The notes under the pieces: model-generated
Databases searched by the model: none
The model's input: the letters and a program-made list of their open reading frames with translations, nothing else
What the model was told of the DNA's origin: nothing
Program-made: the position numbers and the translations under genes
Shown: positions 9,863-31,773 of the stretch, piece by piece
Position numbering within the stretch: the first letter of the stretch is position 1
Layout: each line of letters begins with the position of its first letter
Origin: Candidatus Saccharimonadota bacterium
Lineage (GTDB): Bacteria; Patescibacteriota; Saccharimonadia; Saccharimonadales; UBA10212
Reading direction: 5' to 3'
DNA length: 64,000 bases
Assembly (NCBI GenBank): GCA_016176605.1
Contig: JACOWW010000003.1
Location: forward strand, 30,138 to 94,137

Positions 9863-9938
9863 TGGTGACCCGGGAGGGAATCGAACCCCCAACATTCGCC
9901 TTAGGACGGCGACGTTCTATCCGTTGAACTACCGGGCC
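9863..9938 (-). tRNA. tRNA-Arg (anticodon CCT)
   Basis: Acceptor GGCCCGG/CCGGGTC, D arm GTTC..GAAC, anticodon stem TCGCC/GGCGA with loop GTCCTAA, T arm GGGGG-TTCGATT-CCCTC, encoded CCA. Confidence 0.8.
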
Positions 9939-10633: not shown

Positions 10634-11575
10634 ATGGGTTATGAAAATGCAGTTAGTCAGTTTCTGGAATATTTAGAGCTGGAGCAAAACCGCTCGCAAA
10701 AAACGATTGAGAATTATAGTCACTACCTGACCCGACTCAGTGATTTTGCCGGCGACATCAAGCTTAAAGACATTAACGAGCAACTAATCCGTAAATGGCG
10801 CCTTTGGCTAAACCGTTTAGGTACAAATACATCCGATGAACTGTCCAAAACAACCCAAAATTATCATTTAATCGCTCTGCGCAGTTTTTTACGTTTTTGT
10901 GCCAAGCGTGAACTGCCTGCCCTGGCGCCGGACAAGATTGAACTGGCGCGCACCAAACGGCCGCAGGTGACTTTTTTAAACCTTGAGGAAATCGAAAGAT
11001 TATTTGCCCAACCAGACACTACAAAATTAACGGGTATAAGAGACCGGGCAATTTTGGAGCTATTGTTTTCCAGCGGCCTGCGAGTTTCCGAACTGGTCGG
11101 GCTGGACCGTGATCATATTAATTTAAGGCGGCGCGAGTTTATGGTGCGCGGCAAAGGCCAAAAAGACCGGCCGATTTTTATCAGCCCGGAAGCGGCCGAG
11201 TGGATACAGCGCTACCTGGACAAGCGCCAAGATAATACCAAACCGCTATTTATCAGATACAGTGGCAGTAAAAAAGTCGATTTAAGCGGCAATTATCATC
11301 GTTTGACTGCCCGCAGCATGCAAAGGATGGTCGCCCGCTATGCCTTAGCTGCCGGAATCACTAAACACGTCAGCCCGCACACGATGCGCCACAGCATGGC
11401 AACCGACTTATTGATGAACGGGGCAGATCTTCGCTCAGTCCAAGCCATGCTTGGCCACTCCAACATCGCCACCACCCAAATCTACACCCATGTCACCGAC
11501 CCCCATCTTAAAGCAGTGCATGAGAAATTCCACCGGCGGGTACCGGCTGGTACCCGCCACCGCGCCAAGAAATAG
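10634..11575 (+). CDS. Tyrosine site-specific recombinase (XerC/XerD family)
   Basis: SAM-like N-domain. Catalytic region RVSELVGL...HTMRHSMATDLL...LGHSNIATTQIYTHV. TACAAT lies 6 nt upstream of the ATG. Confidence 0.85.
   Translation: MGYENAVSQFLEYLELEQNRSQKTIENYSHYLTRLSDFAGDIKLKDINEQLIRKWRLWLNRLGTNTSDELSKTTQNYHLIALRSFLRFCAKRELPALAPDKIELARTKRPQVTFLNLEEIERLFAQPDTTKLTGIRDRAILELLFSSGLRVSELVGLDRDHINLRRREFMVRGKGQKDRPIFISPEAAEWIQRYLDKRQDNTKPLFIRYSGSKKVDLSGNYHRLTARSMQRMVARYALAAGITKHVSPHTMRHSMATDLLMNGADLRSVQAMLGHSNIATTQIYTHVTDPHLKAVHEKFHRRVPAGTRHRAKK
11530..11563. repeat. 34-bp hairpin-forming repeat, copy 1 (inside the recombinase 3' end)
   Basis: CCACCGGCGGGTACCGGCTGGTACCCGCCACCGC. The 10-bp stem is GGCGGGTACC/GGTACCCGCC. 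33/34 identical to 11777-11810. Confidence 0.85.
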
Positions 11576-11711: not shown

Positions 11712-11776
11712 TATGCATGTTGTATATTGTATATGCATGTAGGGGTTAATTTTGTCAGGGCGGACATGAAAAAAAT

Positions 11777-11810
11777 CCACCGGCGGGTACCAGCTGGTAC
11801 CCGCCACCGC
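11777..11810. repeat. 34-bp hairpin-forming repeat, copy 2
   Basis: Still reads HRRVPAGTRHR in frame, as in the recombinase tail; the single difference is synonymous. Confidence 0.85.
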
Positions 11811-11818
11811 ATCAAAGA

Positions 11819-12250
11819 CTAATTACCGACGGCTTTGCCGCGCCGATGCAGAAACTCGGCTGGTTTAACAATTTTGATTCCTTGATAACTCTTTAGTCCC
11901 AGGAGGTGGCGATCGCCGCTGATGATGTAGTCGCAATGACCAATTAGCGCGGTTTCGATGAATTTATTATCGTCCGCGTCGGGGCTGACTTTGACCGTGT
12001 GAGCGCCTAGTTTAACCAGTTCAGCATCCTGACGCAGAGATTCTTCAAGCAGGCCAAGTTGAGGGGTATAGAGCGGGAATTTTTGGATAATTTTACGTCG
12101 TAGCTCACTTAGCCCCTCTGTACTGATAACAGCTTCTATTCCTCTGTCAACGAATAAATCGAGTATCTTGCCCGGATTGCCGCCAAATACTAAGGCAGAT
12201 ATCCAGACATTTGTATCAATTACCACCCTCAGTTTTGGGGCAGTTGTCAT
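11819..12250 (-). CDS. PIN-domain toxin (PIN_3/TIGR00305-like)
   Basis: VVIDTNVWISALVFGG N-terminus; 143 aa; 3 nt downstream of the RHH gene. Confidence 0.7.
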   Translation of the reverse strand: MTTAPKLRVVIDTNVWISALVFGGNPGKILDLFVDRGIEAVISTEGLSELRRKIIQKFPLYTPQLGLLEESLRQDAELVKLGAHTVKVSPDADDNKFIETALIGHCDYIISGDRHLLGLKSYQGIKIVKPAEFLHRRGKAVGN

Positions 12251-12641: not shown

Positions 12642-13364
12642 TTACCTCTTCTGTGCAACAAAAGAATATCCTATAGGAAATCTTTTAATATGTTCTGCTC
12701 TTAATTTCTCGTAAGTTGTTGTCTTAATAAATTGTTTCCAGATTAAGTGGGTGAGTTTATAGGCAACCCTACTCTCAGAAAACATCTTTTGTGTAGCATC
12801 AATAAGAATGTCGGGGCCTCCGCCATACTGATGTAATTCAACAACATCGAGGTTATTATCTTTTGCCAGCGCAGCAAGCGAATATTCTGTGTATCTATAA
12901 TAATCGTTTGGTTGTTCGTGGATCCAGTACATAAATGGTACAAAAATGATAATCTTCCCCGACCTTCTTAAAACCCTTGAACATTCACTAATTAACAAGC
13001 CTGGATCCTTGATGTGCTCGAGAACGTCAGCCAGTAAAACTGTATCAAATTTGTTCTCCTCAAAAGGTAGTCCAAGATTTACATCAGCTATCACATCAAT
13101 ATGCCTTAGGTCATGGAGTGATTTGGCCCAGTCAACACATACCACTGAGTCAGTCTTATCCTTGTACACTCCATAATAAGGTACAGTGCCTGCACCAATG
13201 TCTAATAAATCACCGCTGGCATGCCTCTCAAGTACATCAACATAGTCTTTGCACTCAAGTTTTCCAACATGCTCAGAACGTAAGCCGACAAAACTTTCAT
13301 TGGAATACCATTTTCCATCTCTGAGCAAGATCTTGGATGGTTGCCAACCCTCTTCGTTTTTCAT
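12642..13364 (-). CDS. Class I SAM-dependent methyltransferase
   Basis: LLDIGAGT motif I and VLLADVLEHIKDP. Confidence 0.7.
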   Translation of the reverse strand: MKNEEGWQPSKILLRDGKWYSNESFVGLRSEHVGKLECKDYVDVLERHASGDLLDIGAGTVPYYGVYKDKTDSVVCVDWAKSLHDLRHIDVIADVNLGLPFEENKFDTVLLADVLEHIKDPGLLISECSRVLRRSGKIIIFVPFMYWIHEQPNDYYRYTEYSLAALAKDNNLDVVELHQYGGGPDILIDATQKMFSESRVAYKLTHLIWKQFIKTTTYEKLRAEHIKRFPIGYSFVAQKR

Positions 13365-13488
13365 AAACCTTACTATTACATAATTTCTCTTTCTTTACTA
13401 AAAGTTACCGCTATAAAATTTTATACTCTTTAGCTTTTTATAAAATATTGTTAAGAGTAGTCTTTGTTATAAGTATCAGAACTAGAAC

Positions 13489-15201
13489 TTAATGAATAAC
13501 ACTATATTTACCCTCGGGCATTTTAAGTACACTATTGATGCCAAGCTCCTGTAAAAATTCGGGGTCGTGTGAAACTACCATTAAAGTGCCTTTATAAGTC
13601 TTAAGTGAGTATGCAAGTTTTTCTCGATATACAGGAGTTAGATAGCTTGTTGGCTCATCTAAAATAATTAAGTTTGGCTTTTTTGCCATTATTACAGCCA
13701 GTTGAGCGCGTGCTTGTTCGTCCTTATATCTAATTTCGTCGACTTTAGTAGAGTAATATTCATTTCCACCGAAACCCCAGTAATCCATAATTTTACCCAC
13801 GCCAACAGATGCGGCTTGAGAACGAATATGGTCACGTAGAGTCATGTCTTCATTTGCTAGCTCTGTATAGGGAGAGTAGTAGCCGAATTTGATGCTTGGC
13901 CCAAATTTCACCTCCCCCTCAACTACCATATCTTTTCGCAGCCCCGCGACTACTTTTAATAGGGTGCTTTTACCGCTCCCGTTTCTGCCGACAATGGCTA
14001 ATCGATCCCCTTTTTGGATTAGCAGATTTTGCAAATCTACCACATTAGTACCTTGATCATCTCCGCTTTCATAAGCAATATCTAATTTCGGTATTTCCAA
14101 GACTTTAAGGCTTCCGCCTGTAGCACTTTCGAAGCTCAGTTTTAATTGACGTTTTCGCGAATTAATAATTTCTAAGCCCGGGAAACTGGAAAGTTCTTGC
14201 TGCATTCTTTCAAGCCGAGTTTGGGCAGCTCTGTAAACTTGAGCCATATCCGCACTTTTCCGTGCCATTGGTTGGAGCTGTTTTACATGAAGAGCCCAAT
14301 TTTCGACTTCCTCACGTTTTTGTTCGGCTTCCTCAACCCAGTGATTTATAATTTTAGCTCTTTCTTCTAAGAAGGTGTTCAAGCCTGTAGAACACTGAAC
14401 CACAAGTCCAGTTTCTGTAATTTCAATGACTTTATTAGCAACGCTTTCGGTGAAAGACATATCGGAAGTAGCAATAACTACTGCCTGTCTAGATCCCTGT
14501 AAATATGTGGCAAGCCATTGCCGTGACTTTACATCTAAATGAACAGAGGGTTCATTCATAATAATTATCCCTGCTTTTGAAAAAAGCGCTCTGCCAACGA
14601 TAATCTTTGAAGTTTGTCCGCTGCTTAATTCGCTAATTAACGTATCTTTAGTAACTTCATCGTGTGGATTTGCTGCCACATTTAATCCAGATATTATTTC
14701 ATTAACTTCATTCTCAGCGCTCCATCCACCCAAGAATTCGTATTGCTCCTGTAACTTACCGACCTTATCTATTATGCTTGGACTAACGGCCATTAGTTCA
14801 TATAATCTGTGAAGTTCTTCAGCAATATCAAGCAAGCCTCTTCCCTCATAAAAATAATCTCTTATGGTCATTGTAGGGTCGACAGCTTCAGGTAGCGAAG
14901 GTTCTACATATTCTATTTTTGAATTTGAAGACCTTTGAATTACGCCAGATCGAGGGCTTATACGACCAGCTAGTATATCAGTAACTTCTTCGCGAGCACG
15001 AACATTGTCACCAATGATTGCAACAACTGAACTTTTATCAATATTAATAGTCACAGGTCGAAAATAATCTCCCTCAATCTCTGTTGCAACGAGTTGCGTA
15101 CCTTCTGCTCGATCTTGCTCACGACGTACCCTGGGAGGACTATCATCTGCATCAGGAACAAAAAGATTGAAATTAAAAGCGGATTTAGGTTTTTTCTCCA
15201 T
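13489..15201 (-). CDS. ABC-F family ATPase (two NBDs, no TM domain), first ATP site degenerate
   Basis: NBD2 is canonical: GRNGSGKSTLLK, ILDEPTSYL. NBD1 has IIGDNVRAREEV in place of Walker A, LSSGQ, and NEPSVHLD. A ~80-aa charged linker joins them. The ATG at 15201 (MEKKPKS) is preferred over 15279. Confidence 0.75.
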   Translation of the reverse strand: MEKKPKSAFNFNLFVPDADDSPPRVRREQDRAEGTQLVATEIEGDYFRPVTINIDKSSVVAIIGDNVRAREEVTDILAGRISPRSGVIQRSSNSKIEYVEPSLPEAVDPTMTIRDYFYEGRGLLDIAEELHRLYELMAVSPSIIDKVGKLQEQYEFLGGWSAENEVNEIISGLNVAANPHDEVTKDTLISELSSGQTSKIIVGRALFSKAGIIIMNEPSVHLDVKSRQWLATYLQGSRQAVVIATSDMSFTESVANKVIEITETGLVVQCSTGLNTFLEERAKIINHWVEEAEQKREEVENWALHVKQLQPMARKSADMAQVYRAAQTRLERMQQELSSFPGLEIINSRKRQLKLSFESATGGSLKVLEIPKLDIAYESGDDQGTNVVDLQNLLIQKGDRLAIVGRNGSGKSTLLKVVAGLRKDMVVEGEVKFGPSIKFGYYSPYTELANEDMTLRDHIRSQAASVGVGKIMDYWGFGGNEYYSTKVDEIRYKDEQARAQLAVIMAKKPNLIILDEPTSYLTPVYREKLAYSLKTYKGTLMVVSHDPEFLQELGINSVLKMPEGKYSVIH

Positions 15202-15344
15202 AAAAGTATATACTACCATTAAATGAGCTATAATACAATTTACTGTTCTGCAGCAGTGGCTGCTGTTGCTAAAGTCCATTTTTGGTGTTATAGTTTAGCT
15301 AATACTGAAGTAATAGATATTCATTACATTACATATTCTCAATC

Positions 15345-15746
15345 ATGAAAACTGTATTTCTTTCTGGACCAATAAAAGGAATCTCTAGAGATGAATCTTT
15401 AGCATGGCGCGATGAGGCAAGAAAGTTATTGAAAGAAAAGTTTAATGTAGTACACGCATTACGTGGCCGAGAAGTGAAAGAAACCTTACCAGATAGCCGT
15501 ATCGCTATTCAACGGGACAAAGCCGACATACTCCGGTCGGATGTGATCTTAATAAACGACACCAGTCCTTCGACTTCGATGATTGGTACCTCAATGGAGG
15601 TTCTTTTTGCATTCGAAAATAATAAATTAGTTGTAGTTTTTGGATCAGCCCATGCTCAAGATTACTGGCTACTATATCATTCACATGTGAGATTCAACAA
15701 TCTTAAAGAAGCTTGTAAATTCTTAAATAAATCCTACCATGATTAA
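15345..15746 (+). CDS. Nucleoside 2-deoxyribosyltransferase-like protein
   Basis: VFLSGPIKG N-terminus and SDVILIND...IGTSMEVLFAFENNKLVVVF fit the NDT-family pattern. Motif-level call only. Confidence 0.45.
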   Translation: MKTVFLSGPIKGISRDESLAWRDEARKLLKEKFNVVHALRGREVKETLPDSRIAIQRDKADILRSDVILINDTSPSTSMIGTSMEVLFAFENNKLVVVFGSAHAQDYWLLYHSHVRFNNLKEACKFLNKSYHD

Positions 15747-16851
15747 ACTTTTCGAGCCATCCGTGGATTTTCGTGAAAATGAAGAGGTTTTAGATGTATT
15801 ACAAAGTGGCACGTTAGCACGAGGCTTAAAAGTTGAAGAGTTCGAACGGGAACTTGCCAGTAGATTAGGCAAAGAACATGCAGTCGCATTATCTAATGGC
15901 TCCTCGGCTTTACATTTAAGCGTACGGTCTATGGGATGGAAAGAGGGGGACAAAATATTTACCTCGCCCTACAGCTTCATTGCAGTCCCTAATAGCTTAC
16001 TATACGAAAAGTGTCAGCCAGTATTTGGTGATGTTGACTATGATCTACAACTAACTCCGGAAAGTACCGTCGATGCACTAGAGAGAGATACGGACATTAA
16101 AGGCGTGATTCTGCCTCACATGTTAGGTAAAGATGCTTGTTTAGAAAAATGGCAGGATGTTTTAGATATCCATCCGGAGGTTAGTGTTATTGAAGACGCA
16201 TCTCAGACATTTGCTCCTAGAGAATACGGCCTAAGCGTAGGTAAGATTGGTTCAGCTGTCATTTATAGTTTTCACCAAAACAAAATAATTACTACTGGGG
16301 GAGAAGGAGGTGGACTTGTGACAAACGATCCTGCTGTTGCTGAAAGAGCACGATCTGAAAGAGAACATGGACTCATGCGCCACCCGGATTGGCAAAATAA
16401 GATTAGCATCGGCTTTAACTACCGCATGACAGAGCTCCAAGCAGCAGTAGGCGTGGCACAGTTAGAAAAGCTAGATGATGTTTTACGTCGCCGAGAGGAT
16501 TTAGCCCAACGCTACACAGAAAGGCTACAAGATAATGCAAATATATACCTTCCAGCAATGGATAGAAAAAGCTGGTTCGGATTCTACATTGAAGCAGAAG
16601 ACGAATCGTTAATTCCAGGTGTTAGTTTTGCGCTTGCAAAAAACAATATTGAATTTAAAGTAAATCCATTTCCTGTCCTCCCGCATTTTAGACACATTAG
16701 AGAATTAGTAGGAGATGACGTGGCAAAGAGATATAACAAACTTGCAAGACGAGCTGCTAGGATAATACTTCTGCCTCTCCATCCAAATCTGAGACAGACC
16801 GACGTTGACTATATTTGTGAGGTTATTGATGATGCAATCACCACTTCTTGA
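15739..16851 (+). CDS. DegT/DnrJ/EryC1/StrS-family sugar aminotransferase (PLP-dependent)
   Basis: SGTLARGLKVEEFE, ALSNGSSALHL and SFHQNKIITTGGEGGGLVTND (PLP lysine context). Confidence 0.85.
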   Translation: MIKLFEPSVDFRENEEVLDVLQSGTLARGLKVEEFERELASRLGKEHAVALSNGSSALHLSVRSMGWKEGDKIFTSPYSFIAVPNSLLYEKCQPVFGDVDYDLQLTPESTVDALERDTDIKGVILPHMLGKDACLEKWQDVLDIHPEVSVIEDASQTFAPREYGLSVGKIGSAVIYSFHQNKIITTGGEGGGLVTNDPAVAERARSEREHGLMRHPDWQNKISIGFNYRMTELQAAVGVAQLEKLDDVLRRREDLAQRYTERLQDNANIYLPAMDRKSWFGFYIEAEDESLIPGVSFALAKNNIEFKVNPFPVLPHFRHIRELVGDDVAKRYNKLARRAARIILLPLHPNLRQTDVDYICEVIDDAITTS

Positions 16852-17578
16852 ATCTGCTATAACGTTCTATGACCAGATAGCGCCCTTCTATTCTCAGGAG
16901 CTAGCGGCTAGGGCAGAATATGTTGGTTCGATCAATAGACTAGTGATTGAAGCACTTTCGAGATCAGGGAGTTCAAAAATAATTGATATTGGATGTGGAA
17001 ATGGCGAACGTGCAAGAACCATAGCAGATAATTTAGATGGTGTTGAAATAACAGGAATAGATACTAGCGCTGAGATGGCAAAACAGGCAAGTTTATACGA
17101 TATTAATGTAATCAACATTGACATAGCCCAAGAGCTCACCCAAGACGATGTAGATTCAGTAGGCGGAAATGATGCCGCTCTTTGCTTATGGAATGTATTA
17201 GGACACATAAAAGAGGCAAAGAGACAAGTGGCGTTAATGAATATGAAGCGTTTACTAGATCCGAACGGACAATTAATGATTGATGTTAATAATCGTCATA
17301 ACCGAGCAGCTTATGGTCTAAGGCCTGCCCTGCGAAACACACTGAAAGACTTTGTATCACGAAACGATAATCGCCACGGTGATTTCCCAATAAGTAGAAA
17401 CGTGGGTGAAAAAACAATTGCTACCGAAACCCACATTTTTTCTTGGCGCGAGCTATTATTGCTATTAGAAAAATCTGGTTTTAATGTGCTGGAAACATAT
17501 AGCGTTAATTACGAAACTGGTGAGATTGAGTGGTTAAAATCAGCCGGACAAATTTTTATAATCGCTGAGAAAGGATAA
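16829..17578 (+). CDS. Class I SAM-dependent methyltransferase
   Basis: IIDIGCGNGERA motif I. ATG at 16829 preferred. Overlaps the aminotransferase 3' end. Confidence 0.7.
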   Translation: MMQSPLLESAITFYDQIAPFYSQELAARAEYVGSINRLVIEALSRSGSSKIIDIGCGNGERARTIADNLDGVEITGIDTSAEMAKQASLYDINVINIDIAQELTQDDVDSVGGNDAALCLWNVLGHIKEAKRQVALMNMKRLLDPNGQLMIDVNNRHNRAAYGLRPALRNTLKDFVSRNDNRHGDFPISRNVGEKTIATETHIFSWRELLLLLEKSGFNVLETYSVNYETGEIEWLKSAGQIFIIAEKG

Positions 17579-17579
17579 T

Positions 17580-18773
17580 ATGCGAGTGTTGGAAGTTTGT
17601 TCATTATATTCGCCCCATGCCGGTGGGGTTGAAACCATGACCCAAGAACTTAATAAACGCATATATGCCGATGGCCATGAGGTTGTAGTGTTAACTAAAA
17701 AATGGCCTGATACCTTACTTGGACATGAAATAATTAATGACGTACCCGTATACCGGCTTCTACCCGCCAATGCTCAAAGCGATTATGAAGCGCTAGCTCG
17801 ATCGACTGCAGATTTAGCGACTGTACTTGCGCCTGACGTTATACATACAATTGGTGTCCGCAGACCTATGCCGATGATTGCTTTGATGCTTGGTCGTCGA
17901 TATCAAGTGCCTGTGCTAGGTACAGTTGTTGGATCTGAGGTACCTGATGTTTATGATACTTCAAATAACTGGATATGGGAGTCAGGTAAAGAAAATATAA
18001 AGCCGTCGCTATTACAATTTGATGTAGTTAATGCGGTCTCAAGAGCAATTGCGACAAACACGATTAGAGTTTTACCTGAGCTGGAGACTGTAGATGTTTT
18101 ACCTGTTGGAATTGATAGTTCCGCATATGATACTATCCCACCTTCCGAAAAATACTTAGCGGGATCATATATTTTTTCCCTTCGTCGTCTAGAATATTCG
18201 AAAGGTGTTGACCTATTGATTGATGCTTATGCATCTTTGATTCAAGAAGGAATTTCATTAGACTTAGTTATCGCCGGGGAGGGGCCCGAAGAGCAAACGC
18301 TACGACATCAAGTAGAGATGTTGGGCATTACAGAGAAGGTCCATTTTTTAGGCAAAGTAGCTCTTGATAATGGTATAGGACTACTTAAATCAGCAGCTAT
18401 GACGGTTGTCCCCTCGCGCTCTGAGGGGGGAGGCCTAATAAACACAGAGGCTAACGCTGTAGGTTGTCCGCTTATCGCAACAGATGTAGGAGGTATCCGT
18501 GAATATACCTCGGGTGATGCCAGTTTCTTGATAGAACCCAATTCTCCAAATGCCATTAAAAAGGCTATAAAGCAAGTATTGGATGATAGAAATTGCACTG
18601 AGAGCAAGGTTCTAGAAGGCAGAAGAATCTCTCGGACGCTTGATTGGGATATAGTCTATGATAGATATAAAGAACTGTATGAAGGGTCTGTCGCTAGTTA
18701 CATACCTCGAGATTTTGTGCCTTGGTCTTCCCAGTCACAACGTCTTAACGAAATTATTGCTGGAACCCCATAA
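17580..18773 (+). CDS. GT-B glycosyltransferase (family 4/1)
   Basis: PSRSEGGGLINTEANAVGCPLIATDVGGIREY, an E-x7-E type C-terminal motif. Confidence 0.8.
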   Translation: MRVLEVCSLYSPHAGGVETMTQELNKRIYADGHEVVVLTKKWPDTLLGHEIINDVPVYRLLPANAQSDYEALARSTADLATVLAPDVIHTIGVRRPMPMIALMLGRRYQVPVLGTVVGSEVPDVYDTSNNWIWESGKENIKPSLLQFDVVNAVSRAIATNTIRVLPELETVDVLPVGIDSSAYDTIPPSEKYLAGSYIFSLRRLEYSKGVDLLIDAYASLIQEGISLDLVIAGEGPEEQTLRHQVEMLGITEKVHFLGKVALDNGIGLLKSAAMTVVPSRSEGGGLINTEANAVGCPLIATDVGGIREYTSGDASFLIEPNSPNAIKKAIKQVLDDRNCTESKVLEGRRISRTLDWDIVYDRYKELYEGSVASYIPRDFVPWSSQSQRLNEIIAGTP

Positions 18774-18781
18774 TAATCAAT

Positions 18782-19720
18782 ATGACAGCTAGTACTCGAA
18801 GTGATTTGGTCAAACTTTTAGATTCACGTCTATCTATTCCAAATACGAATTTGGAAACCGTCCAAGAGAATGACTATAACCTTATATACCGCTACCGGTA
18901 TAAAAATCAAAACTACGTAGTACGCTTAAGTTTGAAGAAAAGCTGTGAAGAGCTTAAGTTTGAAGTTAAGATACTTGAACACTTAAAGAAATATCGCCTC
19001 CCGGTGCCCGCCATATATGAAGTTGACAAACTGGGCAGAAACCCTTTGATGATAATGGAATTCGTGGAAGGATTTCATATTACTAAAGAAAGTGTATCGA
19101 GGACTCTATTTTTAAGATGTTCCAAAAACGCCGGCAGAGTATTGGCAAAAATCCATGTTGCAGGTATAGATTTCAAAAACAATAGTAGTACGGCTACAGT
19201 ACGCCCTCTGAAGGAGATTAATCTAGCGTTGAGCCGAAAAGCCGAAATAAATAGATCATTTTTAGATGGAGATCAGTTTATCAAAGATTTAGTATGGGCT
19301 ACAAATTTCTATAAAGAGACCAAGAACAGTCGAAAAACCATTCTCCATAATGACTATCGACCACAAAATTTACTCTTTAACCAGTCAAATGAAGTGGCGG
19401 CAGTTTTAGATTTTGACTGGGCGTATATAAGTTCAAGTTCTATAAAGGACGTTGCTCACTCTGTTCTTGAATGGTCAATGCCTGATAATCAAATTGTTTG
19501 GGACATGAGAGTAATTAAGGCTTTCTTAACCGGCTATAATAGTTCGTCAATTGAGAAGATAGTTCTAGATAAAACATTATTAGACTGGATGAAATTTTCT
19601 GCATTAAGCGATGCCGCAACATATATCACCAGAACGATGCAACCAGGAAAAACAACAAGGATAAATTCGTATATGTACGAGAAGTTCAAGCTTATAAAGG
19701 TCTTAAGGGGAAAATTATGA
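18782..19720 (+). CDS. APH/choline-kinase-family phosphotransferase
   Basis: ILHNDYRPQNLLF (catalytic loop) and VLDFDWAY (DFD metal-binding motif). Confidence 0.65.
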   Translation: MTASTRSDLVKLLDSRLSIPNTNLETVQENDYNLIYRYRYKNQNYVVRLSLKKSCEELKFEVKILEHLKKYRLPVPAIYEVDKLGRNPLMIMEFVEGFHITKESVSRTLFLRCSKNAGRVLAKIHVAGIDFKNNSSTATVRPLKEINLALSRKAEINRSFLDGDQFIKDLVWATNFYKETKNSRKTILHNDYRPQNLLFNQSNEVAAVLDFDWAYISSSSIKDVAHSVLEWSMPDNQIVWDMRVIKAFLTGYNSSSIEKIVLDKTLLDWMKFSALSDAATYITRTMQPGKTTRINSYMYEKFKLIKVLRGKL

Positions 19721-20688
19721 ATTGCTTTTTATACCTAGAAGGCCTGAAAGAACTCTCGATTAGGTTGCGCGGGGATGAAAAAATACATTTAGGAATAAGA
19801 CCTTACCAGTTCCATGCCGGAAACATATTGAGCATTGGTGCATACCCATATCTTCTATGTGAGGAGGTCAAGAAGTTGGGAAAAACGCCAAGATTTACAT
19901 TTATCATTTCTCTAAACGACTGGGAGCAAGATGAACTAGTGGGTGAAGATATATATCGATACATTTTTGATGTCAGGCCAAAGCATACAACCATACAACA
20001 TCTAAAAGCCGACAATGGCGAGAATATGACTGACCATTGGGAGACCAAAATCAAACATGAATTAAAGCTCATAATTCAAGATTTCCCTGAAGTAAAAATA
20101 GGATATGTTCGTAATTCTGAGCTTAGGTATCACCCGTTAATGCAGGAGGCGTTAATACACACTCTCAATAATAGGCACAAACACAAGGAAATACTACTAA
20201 AGTATTCTAAAAAACCAACAAATGGAACAGATACGCGATTTGCCAATGCTGTCTGTGATAAGTGCTATAACATAGACACAGAGAGCGAGGTGTTACCAAA
20301 AAAACTCATCAGATTAACCTGTACTGAATGCGGTAAAAACGCAATTGGTTCGATACTTAGTTTTAACTACTGGTTTTATCATAAGGAGCTTTTTTCGGCT
20401 CGACTGGCAATTCTTCGTTTTGATGTTTCTATAAGTGGTAGTGACCATTATGCTGAGGGTGATTATGCTACACGTAAAGCCCTTTATGAGTTAATTTATG
20501 AGAAACCCTTCCCGAATTTGAAGATGTTGTTTGCGCCAATATTACTTTCTGATGATGGTCAAAAAATGAGTAAATCAAGAGATAATTATAAATATATACC
20601 CCTTGGAACTATCCTTTCATACGCTAGGACCAACATTAACTCAAGTTTATCTCTGAATAATGCTTCAATAGAAGCTCTATTGAGATGA
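19717..20688 (+). CDS. Truncated class-I lysyl-tRNA-synthetase-like protein (catalytic domain only)
   Basis: HIGH-type motif FHAGN, Cys cluster CDKC...CTEC, SGSDHYAEGDY, and KMSKS (QKMSKSRDN). At 323 aa there is no room for an anticodon-binding domain. Confidence 0.55.
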   Translation: MNCFLYLEGLKELSIRLRGDEKIHLGIRPYQFHAGNILSIGAYPYLLCEEVKKLGKTPRFTFIISLNDWEQDELVGEDIYRYIFDVRPKHTTIQHLKADNGENMTDHWETKIKHELKLIIQDFPEVKIGYVRNSELRYHPLMQEALIHTLNNRHKHKEILLKYSKKPTNGTDTRFANAVCDKCYNIDTESEVLPKKLIRLTCTECGKNAIGSILSFNYWFYHKELFSARLAILRFDVSISGSDHYAEGDYATRKALYELIYEKPFPNLKMLFAPILLSDDGQKMSKSRDNYKYIPLGTILSYARTNINSSLSLNNASIEALLR

Positions 20689-21815
20689 AAAAATATGTTT
20701 TTGTGGCAAATGACTTCGGGTTCGGCCCGATATCACGAGCATTAACTGTCGCTCAAACAATTAAAAAGAAATCTGTTAGTCAAGATGTGAATATTTCGTT
20801 TATTACATCCGGCTTTAGCGACCATTTAATTGATCCTGAGTTTAAAATAATAAAAGTTGCTAATTTAAGGTGTGTTAACAATTTAAGAAAAGTCTTGTCT
20901 GGTCTGGATGATTGTTCAATCATTGTAAGTTCCGCTAATCGTTTTGCATTAACAGTGAGTAAACAGCTAGGACTTAAGACTATTCTTCTAGATGGACTTT
21001 ATTGGTTTTGGCAGAAAAGGCCTAGTGAATATGAAACGGCAGATATTGAGATTTGCTGTGTCCTTCCTTGGCTGGTTGATGAATTTAAATACAAACACAA
21101 AGACAAGATTATCGTTGCGTCACCAATCGAAGTGCCCGCTCACGGACTTGAAAGAAATTCTGTTGCATGGGACAGTACCTTTAATATAGGAGGCTATGTA
21201 AACCCCTTCCATCATCACAGTCATGATGTTTATCTAGATCTCTTAGGAATTGCCTTAAATACAATGCAAAAAAATAATGGCACAATTCTAGTAGCCACTA
21301 GTGAGTATTGCAGGGATTATCTGCAAGAAAATCACCGTTTTGCGAAATCGATCACTTTACAATGCCCTAATAAAGATGAATATCAGGCAATACTTCAAGA
21401 GACTAAGTCTGTATGGCTTAATGGCGGCAGCAACTCTATTTTAGAGGTCCTGGCTTTAGAAATACCTTTTTATTTATTTATGCCCTCAAATTTAAGCCAA
21501 TATAATCTAATTAGCAATATATCTGAATACTTAACTATTCCTGTAGAGAACTTGTGTCCTTTGCTTAGTTATATGAGTAATCACAATCAGTTAAAAGACT
21601 GCGAGAGTGAAGAAGAGGCAATAAAAATAATCGCTGATATGATTAGCAGGCTAATACTTAAAATTATGCCCGAAAATCTGGATCAGCTTATATGGAGTTT
21701 GTACTCTAAGAGTTCAAGTCTTCTAGATAATCAACAAGGGGTAGTAAAACTTCGCAAAGAAGCTCAAAAATCTTTAACCTCATCAGGAATGATCGCTGAT
21801 ATTATTATGAGCTAG
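20685..21815 (+). CDS. Putative GT-B fold glycosyltransferase (GT1/GT28-like C-terminal half)
   Basis: LNGGSNSILEVLALEIPFYLFMP resembles the nucleotide-sugar binding helix of MurG/GT1 enzymes. The N-terminal half is unassigned. Confidence 0.4.
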   Translation: MKKYVFVANDFGFGPISRALTVAQTIKKKSVSQDVNISFITSGFSDHLIDPEFKIIKVANLRCVNNLRKVLSGLDDCSIIVSSANRFALTVSKQLGLKTILLDGLYWFWQKRPSEYETADIEICCVLPWLVDEFKYKHKDKIIVASPIEVPAHGLERNSVAWDSTFNIGGYVNPFHHHSHDVYLDLLGIALNTMQKNNGTILVATSEYCRDYLQENHRFAKSITLQCPNKDEYQAILQETKSVWLNGGSNSILEVLALEIPFYLFMPSNLSQYNLISNISEYLTIPVENLCPLLSYMSNHNQLKDCESEEEAIKIIADMISRLILKIMPENLDQLIWSLYSKSSSLLDNQQGVVKLRKEAQKSLTSSGMIADIIMS

Positions 21816-22097: not shown

Positions 22098-23651
22098 TTG
22101 CCAAGCTGGTTATTTCGTCCGATAATAAATAATAGTGTGAGTGAGAATCTACAGGAAAATCTAGAGGTCCCTTATGCGACTGCGGGAAAAGCTAGCGAGA
22201 TTTCAAAAGCAAGGCGCTATAATTCCCTGGCCCGCTGGGCTGGTACGTTTGTTTTGGCGGCAACTATTGCTGTAGGTGTTGGCGAAAAAACTAACAGAGC
22301 CGCGGCAGGAATGCGCATAACTGGTGGAGAAGATATAGCCTTTCATAAAGGGCCGGCCGGAGTAGACGATTCGGCTAGTGTCGAATTGGCGAATAGCCAG
22401 GTTCTGGAACGTTCTACGGTTGACAGACCGGACGATATTACCGGCGAGCAAGTCCACTTTATTTATGCTGCACCAAAAGATCGGACAGATTTAACAGGGG
22501 ATACAGACGGTCGCGTGGATAGGATTATAGATGATGCACAGTATTTTCTGGACACTAGAGGCGAGGAAGGATTACGTCTTCGAGTAGACACATACCAGGG
22601 TCAGCCTGATATATCTTACATGCAACTAGACAAGACGCAGGCAGAAATTTCATCTATGCCGTCACTTAGTATATTTAATTACGTTATCGAACAGGCGCAC
22701 CAAAGAAGTTTTAGTGACCCCCGAAAAGATAAAATCTACAATGTACTTCTTGGTGGCGTTTCATCTTACCAAAGTCTGTGCGGAGGCAACTACTGGGATA
22801 GTAAGGACGTAGCTCTTGCATACTTGGATAAACAGGAATGCGATTTTAACTATGGGGGAGTAAGTACTCTAGCCTTAACCACATCAAAAAATATTATTCA
22901 AACCATTGGATACCCAAGAACTTGCGCTCAGAATTTTATAGAGGGTGGAAAAATCAATGATTCCCTTGATCTTCTAGCCAACAGGCAAACCAGTGAGTGG
23001 TGGAAGCTAAGAATAGATTCTGATCACAATGATTATTTACGGGCGCCTAACTGCCCGGGCATTGAAACAAGCGGTTTGATGTCCTGGCCACTTAACTCCG
23101 CGAAGAATGGTAATGGAACAATTATTTATTTTAAGAAAAATGCTGACGGGCAGCGTGTTCCTACCACTTTAGACCCCGGAAACCGTTTGCGAGGAGGATC
23201 TGATATTGAAGCTGAATATATCCCTGTCACAGGAGAGAAATTTATTGGTTGGAGCGGTGATTGCAATGATACAGAGGCTCGGGTCTGTGAGTTCTTAGTT
23301 GACAAAGTAATTGACATCCAGGCCAAGGTCGAAAAAACTACCCTTTCCCCACCCAAGGGAGGTTACAGATTGACAGCTACAAGTGAGGGGCCCGGACAAT
23401 TTGAGTGGCTTAAAAAACTAAGGAAGCAGGTGGACTATATTTTTAAGAAAAGTGGCGCTTTGGTGGTGTTAAAACTGGTGCCGGATAATAAAAACTCGGC
23501 TTTAAAGAGTGTCAGCGGCTGTGATAACCAGCAGCTAGACAAGCCTGGTGCCAAAAAATCCGGTGTTTGCTACGAAAAGATTGACCATAAGCTAGAGAGA
23601 ATAAGAGCTGTTTTCGTCAAAGTACCGGTTGTCAGCAAGTTTACTAGCTAA
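22098..23651 (+). CDS. Hypothetical membrane-anchored/secreted protein (517 aa; start uncertain)
   Basis: N-terminal TM segment (WAGTFVLAATIAVGV). C-terminal FIGWSGDC..CEF pattern as in bacterial repeat (Flg_new-like) domains. Confidence 0.45.
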   Translation: MPSWLFRPIINNSVSENLQENLEVPYATAGKASEISKARRYNSLARWAGTFVLAATIAVGVGEKTNRAAAGMRITGGEDIAFHKGPAGVDDSASVELANSQVLERSTVDRPDDITGEQVHFIYAAPKDRTDLTGDTDGRVDRIIDDAQYFLDTRGEEGLRLRVDTYQGQPDISYMQLDKTQAEISSMPSLSIFNYVIEQAHQRSFSDPRKDKIYNVLLGGVSSYQSLCGGNYWDSKDVALAYLDKQECDFNYGGVSTLALTTSKNIIQTIGYPRTCAQNFIEGGKINDSLDLLANRQTSEWWKLRIDSDHNDYLRAPNCPGIETSGLMSWPLNSAKNGNGTIIYFKKNADGQRVPTTLDPGNRLRGGSDIEAEYIPVTGEKFIGWSGDCNDTEARVCEFLVDKVIDIQAKVEKTTLSPPKGGYRLTATSEGPGQFEWLKKLRKQVDYIFKKSGALVVLKLVPDNKNSALKSVSGCDNQQLDKPGAKKSGVCYEKIDHKLERIRAVFVKVPVVSKFTS

Positions 23652-23652
23652 G

Positions 23653-24498
23653 TTATTGATCTATTTTGAGGCTGTCTATCACCTGTTGCCAAACATCTTG
23701 GTTGCGCTGCCAGTTATAGTCGGCTGTAGCAACCATAAAGTAATAAAACGTCCTCTTGCCGACGGCGAACACGAACTTACCTTTCAGATCGGCGTATTTA
23801 CCGGCTGTTTCGCCGGCCCGAAAGTTAGCCTGCCAAGCGTTTTGCTTAATATTTGTTGTAGTTAACGGCACCAGTGCTTGCATTTCAATTTTTAGTTGTT
23901 TTGGAGTGAAAGCTTGCAAAAACTTTTTAAAGGAATCCGCCATGTTTTGATAATCCTTATTATTGGGGTCTTTTAATATTTGGCCGAGGCTCGTAACGTA
24001 GCTATCACTGGCGGCTAAGGCGCTTTGAAGAGATGACATAGCCATATAGGTTAATCCAAACTCTGAGTCCCCCTTAGACACAGTATGTACAAAATAAGCG
24101 CTGGCTAGCCCCTGGGTTTCTTTTTTATCAAGCAACTTGAGTTCTGCAGGTTTTTTGAAACTGACGGCAGCTCCTTGGAGTTTGCTGGGTAGTTTATAAT
24201 CTTCGAGGGTACTATAAGAATATTTGTGCAGCTGGGCAACAAAATAAACGTTGTAAATTTTAAGGTAAACCAGTGCACCGATTAGAGTCACAACAACTAA
24301 AGCGGCTGCCAGCCTATAAAAAGTTGGTTGTTTGGACTTTATCGCTCGAACAATCAAATAAATTACAGCGACTAACCCCAGCGGCGGAAGCAGCAGCCCG
24401 GCAAGCAAGAGTAGCCGCCGGAATTTTGTTCCAATAATAGACGGGGTTTTTTGCGTACTGTCATTTACGATTGGTTGATTTTGCTGGTCTGGCAGCAT
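23653..24498 (-). CDS. Hypothetical membrane-anchored protein (281 aa)
   Basis: ORF with two N-terminal TM segments. No recognised motif. Confidence 0.45.
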   Translation of the reverse strand: MLPDQQNQPIVNDSTQKTPSIIGTKFRRLLLLAGLLLPPLGLVAVIYLIVRAIKSKQPTFYRLAAALVVVTLIGALVYLKIYNVYFVAQLHKYSYSTLEDYKLPSKLQGAAVSFKKPAELKLLDKKETQGLASAYFVHTVSKGDSEFGLTYMAMSSLQSALAASDSYVTSLGQILKDPNNKDYQNMADSFKKFLQAFTPKQLKIEMQALVPLTTTNIKQNAWQANFRAGETAGKYADLKGKFVFAVGKRTFYYFMVATADYNWQRNQDVWQQVIDSLKIDQ

Positions 24499-24520
24499 TA
24501 TTTAATACCCTCTTCTAGAT

Positions 24521-26668
24521 TTAATCGCATGCCCACCTACCAAAGTAAAGCATTACGCCGAAGTTATTAAGCGAGCGTTGCTGCAACGCGCAACCATTAA
24601 CAAATGTAGGTGGGGGTGGGGGTGGGGATGGAGGGGGTGGAGGTGGAGGCGTTGCTGGCCGCCAGGCATCATCGGGCGCAGGTGGAGGAGGCGGGGGTGT
24701 ATAGGTTGGCTGAGGATTATAATTTGTGATTGGTTGGCAATTACCGGGGGAACCTTGCAGACCTTGGGATTCGCATGACGGTTGGTTAGGCTGATTTGTA
24801 TCCGAAGGGTTTGATGCCACGCATTGGCCGGTATCGAGAGTGAACCAATTAGAGTAGCCGCCGCAGCCGCCGGTTGTGGAAACGCACCGGCCATCACTCC
24901 CCCTAGAAAAACCCTGGGCGCAATTGCTGGATGAGATTGGCGTCGATCCAGTGCAATCCCTGACGGAAGCGGAGGCATAACCCCTGTAACTTATATCACT
25001 CAAGGTAGTAACCTTACAGCCTTCTGAATCGTAGTATGTGTTCCAGACGCCGCCTTGGTTGGAGTTAGTACAATCGCCCCACTGTTTTTCGGCATTATAA
25101 ATTGTACAAACGATATCTCCACCGCCTCCGCCGGCGCTAGTGCTACCACTACCACCGCTGGAGCCGGTGCCGCCGGTGCCGCTACCAGAACTGGTCGGAG
25201 CATTGCAGTTAGGTGGAGTTCCGGTGGTGCCAGAGGGGCAAGCCGGTGGCTGACCCGGGCCAGCCACAGCAACGTCTTTTTGGGCGCTGGCTTGACTGGA
25301 ACCTTTCGTACAGGTGATCTTAAATGCGTACGTTTGCGGACCGCTTAAGGCAATTGATTGTTCACTGCCGCCGGCCGGCGCCTTTGCGCCACTCCAGCCG
25401 CCGCTGGCTGGCGTTGTAGTTGCGGCGCAAGAGTCCGGCGAGCCGGTTGTAGTCCACGTTAATGTAACCTTTTCGTTATTGGAAATAGCGTTTTTATCTA
25501 CATTTAAAGTTACGGTGGTGCCGCTAGCGCCAGCCGGAGCTGCTCCAGCTTTAAGGTCCAACTCACAGATTTCACGACTGCTAATGTCAATGAAGACTGG
25601 CTGGTTTATATCTGTGGGCGCTATTAGCCGTTTACAAATTTGGTTGGAACTACGCAAGGCGAATTCCGGTATAGCATTTTCGTCAGGGCTGATGTTGTAG
25701 TCGCGACCAGTAGAAATGCCGCTGGAATCTATCCGCGCCTGCAACCGCTTGACAGCATTACCGGATTTAGCGGTAGCGTCAATTACTGATTGGACATCGA
25801 TGAATTTAAGTACGTTGTTGCTAGAGTCATTAGCCTTTATCTTGACGTTAGTTTGGTTATAAATCGGCGTCAGGCGGACGTAATAATAGTCCGCCGCCGC
25901 CAGGCCGTTGATGATTACGTTACAGTTATAATCGGCCGAGCCTTTAAAGTTACCGGTACTTGGGTTATTCTTGCCGCATTCAATTTTTTGCAAGCCTTCC
26001 GAGCCGTAAGCGACAGTACTTAGCGTGTCATTGGTTTTGGGATTCGGATAAAAGAAATAAGTTTTAGAACCACTGCGGGCGCTATCCAGCGAACCACCTG
26101 TCCCAATTGGGTATAAGCTGACGCGCAGTACCGGCTCGTATTTGTCCAGGCTCCACTTCTTTTCACTGTAGAAAGTTTGGCCGCCTGGCAGTTGGTCAAA
26201 GGTGCGGTCATAACTTTCCCAAGAAAACATGACACTACCGCCACTTACAGACGCCGAGGTCGTCATTTTGATAACTTGCGAGCTTAGCGGCGGCAGTTTT
26301 TGATATACAAGATCAGACGGTGTAGGGTCAATTAATATACAGGTGTACTTGGTATCTTCCGACAGCTTAGCGGCATCTTTTAGCTGCCCGCTGCCAATTA
26401 AGGTATTACAGTCAGTCACGGCTTCGGCCGGGTTTTGCTTGGCATAAGCAATGGCATCGTTGACGGCCGAGCGGGCCGCATAGTTGGCGGCGGCGCTAAT
26501 CGAGCTGGTAGTTGATTGCTGCAGGGAGCGGTTCATCAGCTTGGAAAAACCAATAGCTACTAAACTCATGACAACCACCAAGACTGACACCACGACTATA
26601 GAGGCAATACCGTACTCTTTGTTTTTCACAAAGCCGGACCTCTTAATCCAGTTAAGCATTAGCTTCAT
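24521..26668 (-). CDS. Large PilX-N-like pilus-associated protein with Ig-like, Gly/Ser-rich, Cys-rich and poly-Pro regions
   Basis: N-terminus KEYGIASIVVVSVLVVVMSLVAIGF resembles the PilX N-terminal segment. C-terminus has PPPPPPAP...PPPPPPPSPPPPPP. The ATG at 26668 overlaps the upstream stop (TAATG). Confidence 0.5.
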   Translation of the reverse strand: MKLMLNWIKRSGFVKNKEYGIASIVVVSVLVVVMSLVAIGFSKLMNRSLQQSTTSSISAAANYAARSAVNDAIAYAKQNPAEAVTDCNTLIGSGQLKDAAKLSEDTKYTCILIDPTPSDLVYQKLPPLSSQVIKMTTSASVSGGSVMFSWESYDRTFDQLPGGQTFYSEKKWSLDKYEPVLRVSLYPIGTGGSLDSARSGSKTYFFYPNPKTNDTLSTVAYGSEGLQKIECGKNNPSTGNFKGSADYNCNVIINGLAAADYYYVRLTPIYNQTNVKIKANDSSNNVLKFIDVQSVIDATAKSGNAVKRLQARIDSSGISTGRDYNISPDENAIPEFALRSSNQICKRLIAPTDINQPVFIDISSREICELDLKAGAAPAGASGTTVTLNVDKNAISNNEKVTLTWTTTGSPDSCAATTTPASGGWSGAKAPAGGSEQSIALSGPQTYAFKITCTKGSSQASAQKDVAVAGPGQPPACPSGTTGTPPNCNAPTSSGSGTGGTGSSGGSGSTSAGGGGGDIVCTIYNAEKQWGDCTNSNQGGVWNTYYDSEGCKVTTLSDISYRGYASASVRDCTGSTPISSSNCAQGFSRGSDGRCVSTTGGCGGYSNWFTLDTGQCVASNPSDTNQPNQPSCESQGLQGSPGNCQPITNYNPQPTYTPPPPPPAPDDAWRPATPPPPPPPSPPPPPPTFVNGCALQQRSLNNFGVMLYFGRWACD

Positions 26669-28712: not shown

Positions 28713-28815
28713 GCTATTGCTTATAGAATAAATTATTTTGATTATGAATACCACCTCTGTTTGCAGCTAGAGCTTAATTATTTAGCAATTATCAAAGAAC
28801 AACTTTAGGCACTGT

Positions 28816-29763: not shown

Positions 29764-29765
29764 AT

Positions 29766-31621: not shown

Positions 31622-31773
31622 TTCCTTTCAGTATACAGATAGTGAGTAACCAAAAAATACTTAACAAGTCAAGCATTTTCTATTTTTAATGAAAAACGAG
31701 CGGATTTTACCCGCCCGTCTTTGCTTATTACTTTCTTGTCCTGAGCGAAGTCGAAAGATTGCTGTTTGCCAAT

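Follow-up and report, generated by a model that had tools for sequence, protein, structure and literature searches.

Bacteria of the candidate phyla radiation (CPR), or Patescibacteria, have genomes of about 1 Mb. The general view is that most biosynthetic pathways, those for nucleotides among them, are missing, and the group is regarded as poor in secondary metabolism. The question raised by the locus described here is what a compact, AT-rich block of glycosidase-, transferase-, kinase- and synthetase-like genes would be making in such a genome. The block lies at positions 12642-21815 of a 64-kb stretch from a Candidatus Saccharibacteria genome; this whole stretch is called the window, and all coordinates are window positions unless another locus is named. 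The answer proposed from the sequence, which we consider to have about an even chance of being right, is that the block would be one copy of a horizontally mobile CPR cassette that builds an amino-acylated, methylated aminohexosyl nucleoside in the cytoplasm. Such a product would most likely be of the blasticidin/gougerotin/amicetin type and possibly a disaccharide.

The block is set apart from its surroundings by its base composition, with a GC content of 0.389 against 0.474 for the remainder of the window, and the window's lowest-GC stretch of 9.2 kb starts at position 12601. The GC content at third codon positions (GC3) lies between 0.31 and 0.36 across the nine genes of the block and between 0.46 and 0.59 in the flanking genes. 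Two genes, encoding an ABC-F ATPase and a methyltransferase (MT1, GC3 0.36), are read from the minus strand, and the other seven are tightly packed on the plus strand with successive junctions of -8, -23, +1, +8, -4 and -4 nt. The first-pass annotation of this DNA had described an AT-rich block of about 9 kb with a divergent layout, which is confirmed by the GC and GC3 profiles and, to the exact coordinate, by a check of the open reading frames (ORFs). It had also counted eight genes on the plus strand; seven are present, which is the number that it listed itself. None of the nine proteins has a transmembrane-like segment.

The same annotation had treated the block as an island in one reduced genome, and this understates the case, as the block is a copy of a cassette that is found CPR-wide. 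A scan of one genome per GTDB species, in which loci were anchored on the gene for a protein resembling class-I lysyl-tRNA synthetase (LysRS-like), yielded 27 loci, nearly all of them in Patescibacteria. The lineages that carry the cassette include Saccharibacteria, Paceibacterota, Nomura-, Staskawicz-, Shapiro- and Beckwithbacteria, as named in the records of the metagenome-assembled genomes. Component counts were taken from BLAST synteny and clustering for 26 of these loci: the LysRS-like gene is present in 26/26, the DegT-type aminotransferase and the GT-B-fold protein in 23/26 each, the protein resembling nucleoside deoxyribosyltransferases (NDT-like) in 20/26, the GT4 glycosyltransferase in 17/26 and the APH-type kinase in 15/26. 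In 20 of the 26, an ABC-F gene is found no more than 10 kb from the LysRS-like gene. A frequent gene order elsewhere is the one seen in the window, NDT-DegT-MT-GT4-APH-LysRS-like-GT-B, while orthologues of MT1 adjoin the LysRS-like gene in the Saccharibacteria loci L005 and L006 only. The cassette is lower in GC than its flanks in other genomes too, with 0.405 against 0.492 at L011 and 0.33 against 0.41 at L021. Low GC and GC3 values, which the window shares with several other genomes, point to horizontal transfer.

Around these components the cassette carries a variable set of accessory genes, including a PseB/CapD-type 4,6-dehydratase, a nucleoside triphosphate (NTP)-transferase, a PIG-L deacetylase, a formyltransferase, a His-phosphatase, a Ham1-type pyrophosphatase, an HMGL-type aldolase, a sulfotransferase, FemAB-like GNATs and a radical S-adenosylmethionine (SAM) enzyme. 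By their Pfam types these are cytoplasmic tailoring enzymes, the check for transmembrane segments having covered the nine window proteins. The PseB-type dehydratase is present in 6/26 loci and not in the window; the PIG-L deacetylase, whose top match is BshB1, occurs at L024, L026 and L027, and no deacetylase is found in the window. A tblastn search of the window likewise returned no dehydratase, NTP-transferase, radical SAM enzyme, His-phosphatase, HMGL protein or second ABC-F. The conserved neighbours of the cassette include neither a membrane protein nor a flippase, a priming transferase or an exporter.

Four loci (L017, L020, L022 and L025) form a sister variant in which the NDT-like, LysRS-like, GT-B, DegT and ABC-F genes are accompanied by a radical SAM enzyme. 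The top NCBIfam model for this enzyme is BlsE cytosylglucuronate decarboxylase (TIGR04466), matched at 196.7 bits over the full length, with the next model at 93. The enzyme also carries the BlsE-type motifs CxxxCxMC and GGEP, both of which are essential in BlsE (PMC3715490). The kinase of the sister variant scores 175.9 bits on the APH(3') model, for which the cutoff is 205. Judged from sequence, these two enzymes add support to a nucleoside product. The radical SAM enzyme of L016 was excluded as BlsE-like, as it is only 22-25% identical to the others and has neither CxxxCxMC nor GGEP, though it had been placed in the same cluster.

Several loci show the anchoring gene in other company. At L004 (9302-10945, Saccharibacteria) the LysRS-like gene stands between ruvB and ruvA without the cassette, and is divergent from the gene for a different NDT-family protein of 196 aa (PF05014, E 3e-6) in which the catalytic Glu aligns to Gln. 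At L029 (6082-16000, on a 1-Mb contig assigned to Actinomycetota) it adjoins an RHS-repeat toxin gene of 1256 aa and is preceded by genes for a His-phosphatase/AAA_33 fusion, an amidotransferase of the AsnB type and an APH kinase. At L033 (5640-9869) the genes directly upstream of the cassette are two for ABC-F proteins and a second NDT-type gene of a different kind (PF15891, 114 bits).

The features of the block are collected in Table 1. The first-pass annotation had named an ABC-F ATPase, a DegT protein, two methyltransferases, a GT4, an APH-like kinase and a LysRS-like catalytic domain, and Pfam reproduced all of these, the last with a score above the Pfam cutoff and with conserved motifs.

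Table 1. Genes and intergenic region of the low-GC block, in window coordinates.
Feature	Length	Position	Strand	Basis or remark
Class I SAM-dependent methyltransferase MT1	240 aa	12642..13364	-	Methyltransf_11 49.8 bits
ABC-F ATPase, two nucleotide-binding domains		13489..15279	-	Pfam ABC_tran x2
Divergent intergenic region between ABC-F and seven-gene operon		15280..15344	.	15202-15344 (~145 nt) if the ABC-F start is 15201
NDT/DNPH1/MilB-fold N-glycosidase-like protein	133 aa	15345..15746	+	Predicted structure, conserved residues
DegT/DnrJ/EryC1-type pyridoxal phosphate (PLP) aminotransferase	370 aa	15739..16851	+	Pfam PF01041 251.7 bits
Class I SAM methyltransferase MT2	249 aa	16829..17578	+	Pfam Methyltransf_23/12/25
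GT4 family glycosyltransferase	397 aa	17580..18773	+	Glycos_transf_1 122.5 bits + Glyco_transf_4
APH/choline-kinase/homoserine-kinase-type small-molecule kinase	312 aa	18782..19720	+	Pfam APH 67.2 bits
Stand-alone class-I LysRS-like catalytic domain	323 aa	19717..20688	+	Pfam tRNA-synt_1f (PF01921)
GT-B-fold glycosyltransferase-like protein, undescribed family	376 aa	20685..21815	+	Predicted structure

The anchor of the cassette, the LysRS-like protein (NCBI locus tag HYS84_02575), scores 52.6 bits on its Pfam model, for which the cutoff is 27. Its HxGN (H33, G35, N36) and KMSKS (M284, K286, S287) motifs are invariant or near-invariant in 19 homologues, as is a CxxC...CxxC knuckle. The protein stops about 35 residues past KMSKS and has neither a stem-contact nor an anticodon-binding domain. 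Its top match in the PDB is the class-I LysRS 1irx (E 2e-5, about 20% identity), and on the NCBIfam model lysS_arch it reaches 25.9 against a cutoff of 147.55. The family is discrete, with about 100 clusters at 50% identity that score 55-458 bits on the family profile, on which canonical class-I LysRS of about 520 aa reach only 35-43 bits. We propose that this domain is an ATP-dependent amino-acid ligase.

The gene for the ligase overlaps that of the kinase by 4 nt, and in the protein P0179 (652 aa) a LysRS-like domain is fused to a cassette-type APH kinase with 39% identity to the kinases of the cassettes. In L005-L007, DegT and methyltransferase are apparently fused as well, judging from ORFs of about 620 aa and from family clustering, where DegT and MT2 share one cluster. 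Taken together, the kinase-ligase overlap and fusion and the apparent DegT-methyltransferase fusion suggest consecutive steps on one substrate. The fusion of kinase and ligase suggests a role in the pathway for the kinase at least as much as one in resistance, so that of the earlier proposal of an APH resistance gene the family stands and the resistance role is putative. In NCBIfam the window kinase matches homoserine kinase and APH(3') models, both under cutoff, and a PDB search with it gave generic matches only, which offer no basis for naming a substrate. Among other architectures of the ligase, P0232 (619 aa) carries a C-terminal Abhydrolase_3 domain. The N-terminal 200 or so residues of P0181 (524 aa) show an NDT-like motif pattern with no significant profile match; an NDT-like/LysRS-like fusion is not claimed for this protein, which has no Pfam match in that region and an hhalign probability of 6%.

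The NDT-like protein is the most conserved component of the cassette, with a mean column identity of 58-67% across phyla and a wealth of invariant Arg and His residues. Its AlphaFold model (pLDDT 91) retrieves as its top 41 Foldseek matches in the PDB only DNPH1, NDTs, MilB, BcmB or an uncharacterised Enterococcus protein, with E about 1e-5 and TM scores of 0.65-0.77 for the top matches. A profile of the family, built from 15 orthologues, finds the cytidine monophosphate (CMP) N-glycosidase BcmB as its top PDB match (E 0.013). D58, G81, T82 and E85 are invariant in the family and S78 is nearly so. The key residues of MilB are Phe22, Arg23, Glu62, Asp78, Ser97, Gly99 and the catalytic Glu103 (PMC4081090). 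In the profile alignment (E 0.013), D58, S78, G81 and E85 pair with MilB D78, S97, G99 and the catalytic E103. In place of the P-F-(R/K/M) motif of MilB and BlsM the family reads G-P-(M/I)-(R/K), by which the positive residue is retained. The NDT-like assignment made by eye is thus upheld at the level of the fold by AlphaFold and Foldseek, despite a Pfam score under the cutoff. A profile search with the family returned 947 sequence clusters, and the three homologues sampled on long contigs (3/3) all lie inside the same cassette, together with an ABC-F gene.

The last gene of the operon had been called GT-B-like, a reading that the predicted structure bears out. The window protein has no match in Pfam or NCBIfam, and two of the 17 family members give marginal glycosyltransferase matches in these family libraries. 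The AlphaFold model (pLDDT 88) has a GT-B fold, for which Foldseek returns GT4 enzymes, MurG, UGTs, MshA, BshA and SpnG at E about 1e-8, and the family profile has weak matches to the GT1 enzymes YjiC and OleD (E 0.02-0.3). The protein is a candidate for an enzyme that glycosylates a base or another aglycone.

The other enzymes can be placed at the level of the family. The DegT protein contains the lysine motif SFHQNK, and its top NCBIfam models are PseC (215.6 bits, cutoff 423.5) and LegC, both under cutoff. The top models of the GT4 enzyme are EpsE, BshA (87.5 bits, cutoff 273.7) and MshA (68.9 bits, cutoff 462.5), all far under their cutoffs. MT2 is taken to start at ATG 16829, in agreement with a Logan gene call of 249 aa, while the longest ORF opens at TTG 16805; a PDB search with it gave weak generic matches only (UbiG, glycine N-methyltransferase, MitM) and no basis for a substrate.

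The divergent ABC-F protein consists of two ABC domains and a linker, without a transmembrane domain, and its true start is probably ATG 15201, as in its orthologues, which would give a protein of 570 aa. The first-pass annotation had left open a housekeeping clade (EttA/Uup/YbiT) for this protein. The data point elsewhere, as its top NCBIfam model is NF000355, 'ribosomal protection-like ABC-F' (198.7 bits, cutoff 380), and its top PDB match is PoxtA (157 bits), followed by Uup (137), YheS (130), YbiT (126) and EttA (120). Its ATP site 2 is canonical. Site 1 is degenerate: Walker A1 reads GDNVRARE, the histidine of H-loop 1 is lost, and so is the signature of the second nucleotide-binding domain (NBD2), where 'LSGGQ' is replaced in the ABC-Fs of Saccharibacteria-type cassettes and reads 'RYKDE' in the window protein. 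ABC-Fs with a single intact site are also found at L005 (4644-6368), L006 (4713-6419) and L007 (2707-4443), with 'GDNV.AR' as Walker A1, and we know of no single-site ABC-F of this kind among the characterised ones. Overall, the ABC-Fs linked to cassettes fall into three subtypes, of which the window protein represents type A. Those of type C reach the curated cutoff of NF000355 with 380.3-440.5 bits and are far under the respective cutoffs on the EttA, Uup, YbiT and YheS models; types A and B have the same top model, under cutoff. The linkage of ABC-F to the cassette is kept through rearrangements and across all three subtypes. When metagenome contigs were scanned with the window ABC-F, the outcome was uninformative: one relative of 26% identity with no cassette beside it.

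The closest known systems are the clusters for blasticidin, mildiomycin, arginomycin and gougerotin. With these the cassette shares an N-glycosidase-like protein of the NDT fold, a protein of the GT-B fold, an aminotransferase that uses PLP, methyltransferases and, as proposed here, an ATP-dependent ligase for an amino acid. BlsE homologues are described for blasticidin S, mildiomycin and arginomycin, all of them cytosyl-pyranoside nucleosides, in a paper that also sets out the route from free cytosine through the cytosylglucuronic acid (CGA) synthase BlsD/MilC (PMC3715490). A BlsE-like radical SAM enzyme is common to these clusters and the sister variant only, whereas the window has a GT4 enzyme and a kinase instead. 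The ligase of the blasticidin cluster is an ATP-grasp enzyme (e.g. BlsI), in contrast to the class-I LysRS-like ligase of the cassette, and the hosts are Streptomyces on the one side and CPR bacteria on the other. The cassette further differs in its GT-B protein of no described family, in the lack of an exporter and in family scores that all stay under the equivalog cutoffs.

Other pathways resemble the cassette in part. Clusters of the amicetin type contain the NDT-like AmiI, the glycosyltransferases AmiJ and AmiG, the DegT protein AmiB, the N-methyltransferase AmiH and, for sugar activation, AmiE and AmiU. By gene content, the cassette would match these clusters in its NDT-like enzyme, its pair of glycosyltransferases, its DegT protein and a methyltransferase, and some cassettes add an NTP-transferase and a 4,6-dehydratase; by contrast, the cassette has no p-aminobenzoic acid or nonribosomal peptide synthetase genes and has the synthetase-like ligase and the kinase in addition. 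Puromycin is made with the DegT-type aminotransferase Pur4, the NTP pyrophosphatase Pur7, the phosphatase Pur3, the aminoacyl ligase Pur6 and methyltransferases. The likeness here is one of logic, from aminonucleoside to amino-acid ligation to methylation, together with the Ham1-type NTP pyrophosphatases and His-phosphatases of some cassettes, whereas puromycin synthesis is not known to use glycosyltransferases or an NDT-fold glycosidase, both of which the cassette has.

For the ligase, the nearest parallels are MshC, a Cys:GlcN-Ins ligase that is a paralogue of CysRS, and GluQRS/YadB, a truncated GluRS. In both, as proposed for the cassette enzyme, a class-I core is reused for an acceptor other than a tRNA 3' end, and GluQRS is likewise without an anticodon-binding domain. 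MshC acylates an aminosugar amine that is freed by a PIG-L deacetylase, the family seen in three of the cassettes. The cassette ligase differs from both in its origin from class-I LysRS (PF01921) and in ending right after KMSKS. The ABC-F protein has the same architecture of two NBDs and a linker as the antibiotic-resistance (ARE) ABC-Fs such as PoxtA and the ABC-Fs of producer clusters (OleB, CarA, LmrC), and it adjoins a biosynthetic operon as in actinomycete producers, while the window copy departs from the ARE proteins in its score and its degenerate ATP site 1.

From the folds, motifs and gene linkages described above a pathway can be proposed, of which the substrates, the order of the steps, the amino acid and the target are conjectural. 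The NDT-fold enzyme, with its fold and catalytic residues in place, may cleave a CMP-like nucleoside 5'-monophosphate to a free base. The GT-B protein would join this base, or another acceptor, to a nucleoside diphosphate (NDP)-hexose, as the CGA synthase BlsD/MilC does, a role suggested by its fold. A keto group could come from the BlsE-like radical SAM enzyme or the 4,6-dehydratase in sister cassettes, and DegT, placed at the family level, would then add an amino group to the sugar. The LysRS-like core may activate an amino acid with ATP and transfer the aminoacyl group to the sugar amine, like MshC; MT2 and MT1 would methylate, and the GT4 enzyme would attach a second sugar. The kinase may phosphorylate the substrate or the product of the ligase, for protection as a pro-drug or for activation. 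The divergent ABC-F, given its conserved linkage and family affinity, could bind the ribosome of the producer and either protect it from the product or sense the product. As known products of the blasticidin type target the peptidyl-transferase centre, the linked ABC-F would be explained.

A number of observations weigh against this pathway. In the window no dehydratase, oxidoreductase or radical SAM enzyme is found that would form the keto substrate of DegT; for this copy the keto-forming enzyme would have to be supplied from elsewhere in the genome, which is a gap in the model. The BlsE-like enzyme is absent from the window variant, and its score of 196.7 is under the equivalog cutoff of 400. 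The NDT-like protein reaches 18.4 bits in Pfam, under the cutoff of 28.8; the base-stacking Phe of MilB is replaced by Met or Ile in the family, Foldseek does not separate the protein from deoxyribosyltransferases or DNPH1, and its very high conservation would also fit a conserved cellular target or ligand. The GT-B protein is not assignable to the CGA synthases BlsD/MilC, as it has the fold and a weak GT1 signature only. The top models of DegT belong to enzymes of glycan pathways, no exporter is conserved among the cassette loci, and the window ABC-F is far under the NF000355 cutoff and, with its degenerate ATP site 1, unlike the characterised resistance ABC-Fs. Of the self-resistance role proposed for ABC-F in the first-pass annotation, the family affinity therefore holds, while the score and the ATP site of the window copy speak against it. 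The proposal of an amino-acylated aminosugar or nucleoside product is strengthened by the conservation of the cassette and by the BlsE-like radical SAM enzyme and APH(3')-like kinase, with the product itself still conjectural.

The affinity of DegT for PseC and LegC leads to a different explanation, in which an amino-acylated, methylated amino-sugar is made in the cytoplasm and attached to a protein or glycan of the cell surface (pilin, S-layer or wall polymer), similar to the glycosylation of flagellin or pilin with sugars of the pseudaminic/legionaminic type. In that case the kinase would be of the anomeric or choline type, with the linkage to ABC-F either incidental or regulatory. Some cassettes do carry a PseB/CapD-type dehydratase, an NTP-transferase, a formyltransferase, a PIG-L deacetylase or an HMGL-type aldolase, a modular variety of tailoring genes is typical of surface glycans, and type IV pilus genes are located downstream at 27-41 kb in the window. 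These pilus genes are, however, unlinked to the cassette in other genomes. Moreover, a priming polyprenyl-phosphate transferase, flippase, polymerase or oligosaccharyltransferase is not among the conserved genes and the window proteins are free of transmembrane-like segments, which also disposes of a synteny with O-antigen or teichoic-type loci that had been envisaged at first. NeuB/PseI and a CMP-sugar synthetase occur in no cassette and the GT-B protein has no match to PseG, so that the cassette does not hold the pseudaminic/legionaminic set (PseB, PseC, PseG, PseI/NeuB, PseF). This explanation, which also leaves the near-constant ABC-F, the NDT-fold glycosidase, the BlsE-like enzyme and the APH(3')-like kinase without a function, appears quite unlikely.

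The truncated synthetase and the conserved ABC-F could instead belong to a system that modifies the translation machinery (elongation factor P (EF-P), a ribosomal protein, tRNA or rRNA), with the synthetase acting like EpmA/PoxA or GluQRS, the GT-B protein like EarP and the ABC-F as a functional partner at the ribosomal E site. Truncated aminoacyl-tRNA synthetase paralogues that have no anticodon domain are known to catalyse the lysylation of EF-P and the glutamylation of queuosine, and an extremely conserved NDT-like protein with invariant Arg and His would suit a polyanionic ligand. Yet variable tailoring by sulfotransferase, formyltransferase, radical SAM enzymes and GNATs is unlike housekeeping systems, the low GC suggests an accessory, transferred element, and no efp, tRNA or ribosomal-protein gene is linked in three cassettes on long contigs. 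The LysRS-like protein lacks even the stem-contact fold, EarP is not among the top 50 Foldseek matches of the GT-B model, and neither the BlsE-like enzyme nor the APH(3')-like kinase would have a role, all of which makes this a very unlikely solution. The parallel with MshC raises a further one, a protective or metabolic aminoacyl-aminosugar of low molecular weight that follows the logic of mycothiol and bacillithiol and serves as a cofactor or solute rather than a toxin. BshA and MshA among the under-cutoff models of the GT4 enzyme, the BshB1-like PIG-L deacetylase of three loci and the class-I synthetase-like ligase itself would agree with it. The scores for BshA, MshA and BshB are nevertheless all far under their cutoffs, the cassette does not contain the mycothiol/bacillithiol equivalog set (MshA/BshA, MshB/BshB, MshC), and its ligase descends from LysRS rather than CysRS. 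For a core redox cofactor one would expect native genes, while the low GC suggests an acquired, accessory element, and the ABC-F, the NDT-fold glycosidase, the BlsE-like enzyme and the APH(3')-like kinase are again left unexplained; this is the least probable of the three. The aminoacyl nucleoside pathway is retained as the preferred reading of the cassette.

Regulation and mobility of the block were considered as well. A promoter scan of the divergent intergenic region gave consensus-level matches only, not above those in shuffled sequence, and an Rfam and tRNA scan found only four tRNAs in the window, none of them within the block. Boundaries of a genomic island were sought as direct repeats of the nearby tRNA-Arg (9863-9938) or att-like repeats, and no flanking pair was found. 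This tRNA-Arg and ndk are located farther left of the block. Closer to it, a 44-nt GC-rich palindromic repeat occurs at 11525-11568 and 11772-11815, in copies that are 91% identical and resemble terminator hairpins, and lies on either side of the space that separates a tyrosine recombinase gene (10634-11575) from a PIN-domain gene (11819-12250). Integration through this recombinase is not claimed, as its GC is host-like and it could be XerC/D. A known anti-phage defence system was also considered and rejected, as a PADLOC search gave only generic ABC/AAA and methyltransferase matches.

To the right of the cassette (22098-26713) follow three large ORFs of 517, 281 and 730 aa without a Pfam family. 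A transmembrane-like segment is seen at the N-terminus of the 281-aa and the 730-aa ORF. The ORFs of 517 and 281 aa are intermediate in GC (0.43-0.45) and lack a BLAST counterpart beside the cassette in other genomes. The type IV pilus set occupies 27420-40107 and includes PilM (39070-40107), a PilN-like gene (38134-38859) and, at 27420-28754, a protein that joins an N-terminus of the prepilin type to a polysaccharide lyase domain. A second low-GC patch (42000-48000, GC 0.385-0.44) contains several ORFs without a family, an SNase-family nuclease with an Excalibur motif (44686-45468) and a weakly proteasome-subunit-like ORF (43364-44077).

No account of the cassette was found in the literature searched on CPR, Patescibacteria or Saccharibacteria together with ABC-F, deoxyribosyltransferases, peptidyl nucleosides or blasticidin, and a literature search for truncated class-I LysRS paralogues returned no description. 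The cassette is best filed as a nucleoside/aminosugar antibiotic-type cluster with a linked ABC-F, which is a known kind, with the type of ligase, the glycosyltransferase family and the unexpected host group as the new elements. It contains three families for which no description was found in the literature and family libraries searched, namely the stand-alone class-I LysRS-like ligase, the GT-B family without a Pfam model and the very conserved NDT-fold enzyme, and in addition an ABC-F lineage with a single intact ATP site.

A broader hypothesis, tentative and on balance unlikely, is that a transferable cassette for an aminoacyl nucleoside directed at the ribosome is widespread among the ultra-small CPR episymbionts, in which the class-I synthetase core, freed of its tRNA-binding domains, would aminoacylate an amino-sugar nucleoside as a mimic of the tRNA 3' end, the ABC-F would shield the episymbiont's own ribosomes, and the compound would control or kill the host bacterium. 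If true, a transferable pathway of 9 kb for a peptidyl-nucleoside-like compound, together with a ribosome-protection factor, in at least six candidate CPR lineages would change the view of CPR metabolism and would make the ways in which these episymbionts interact with their hosts, or kill them, open to experimental tests.

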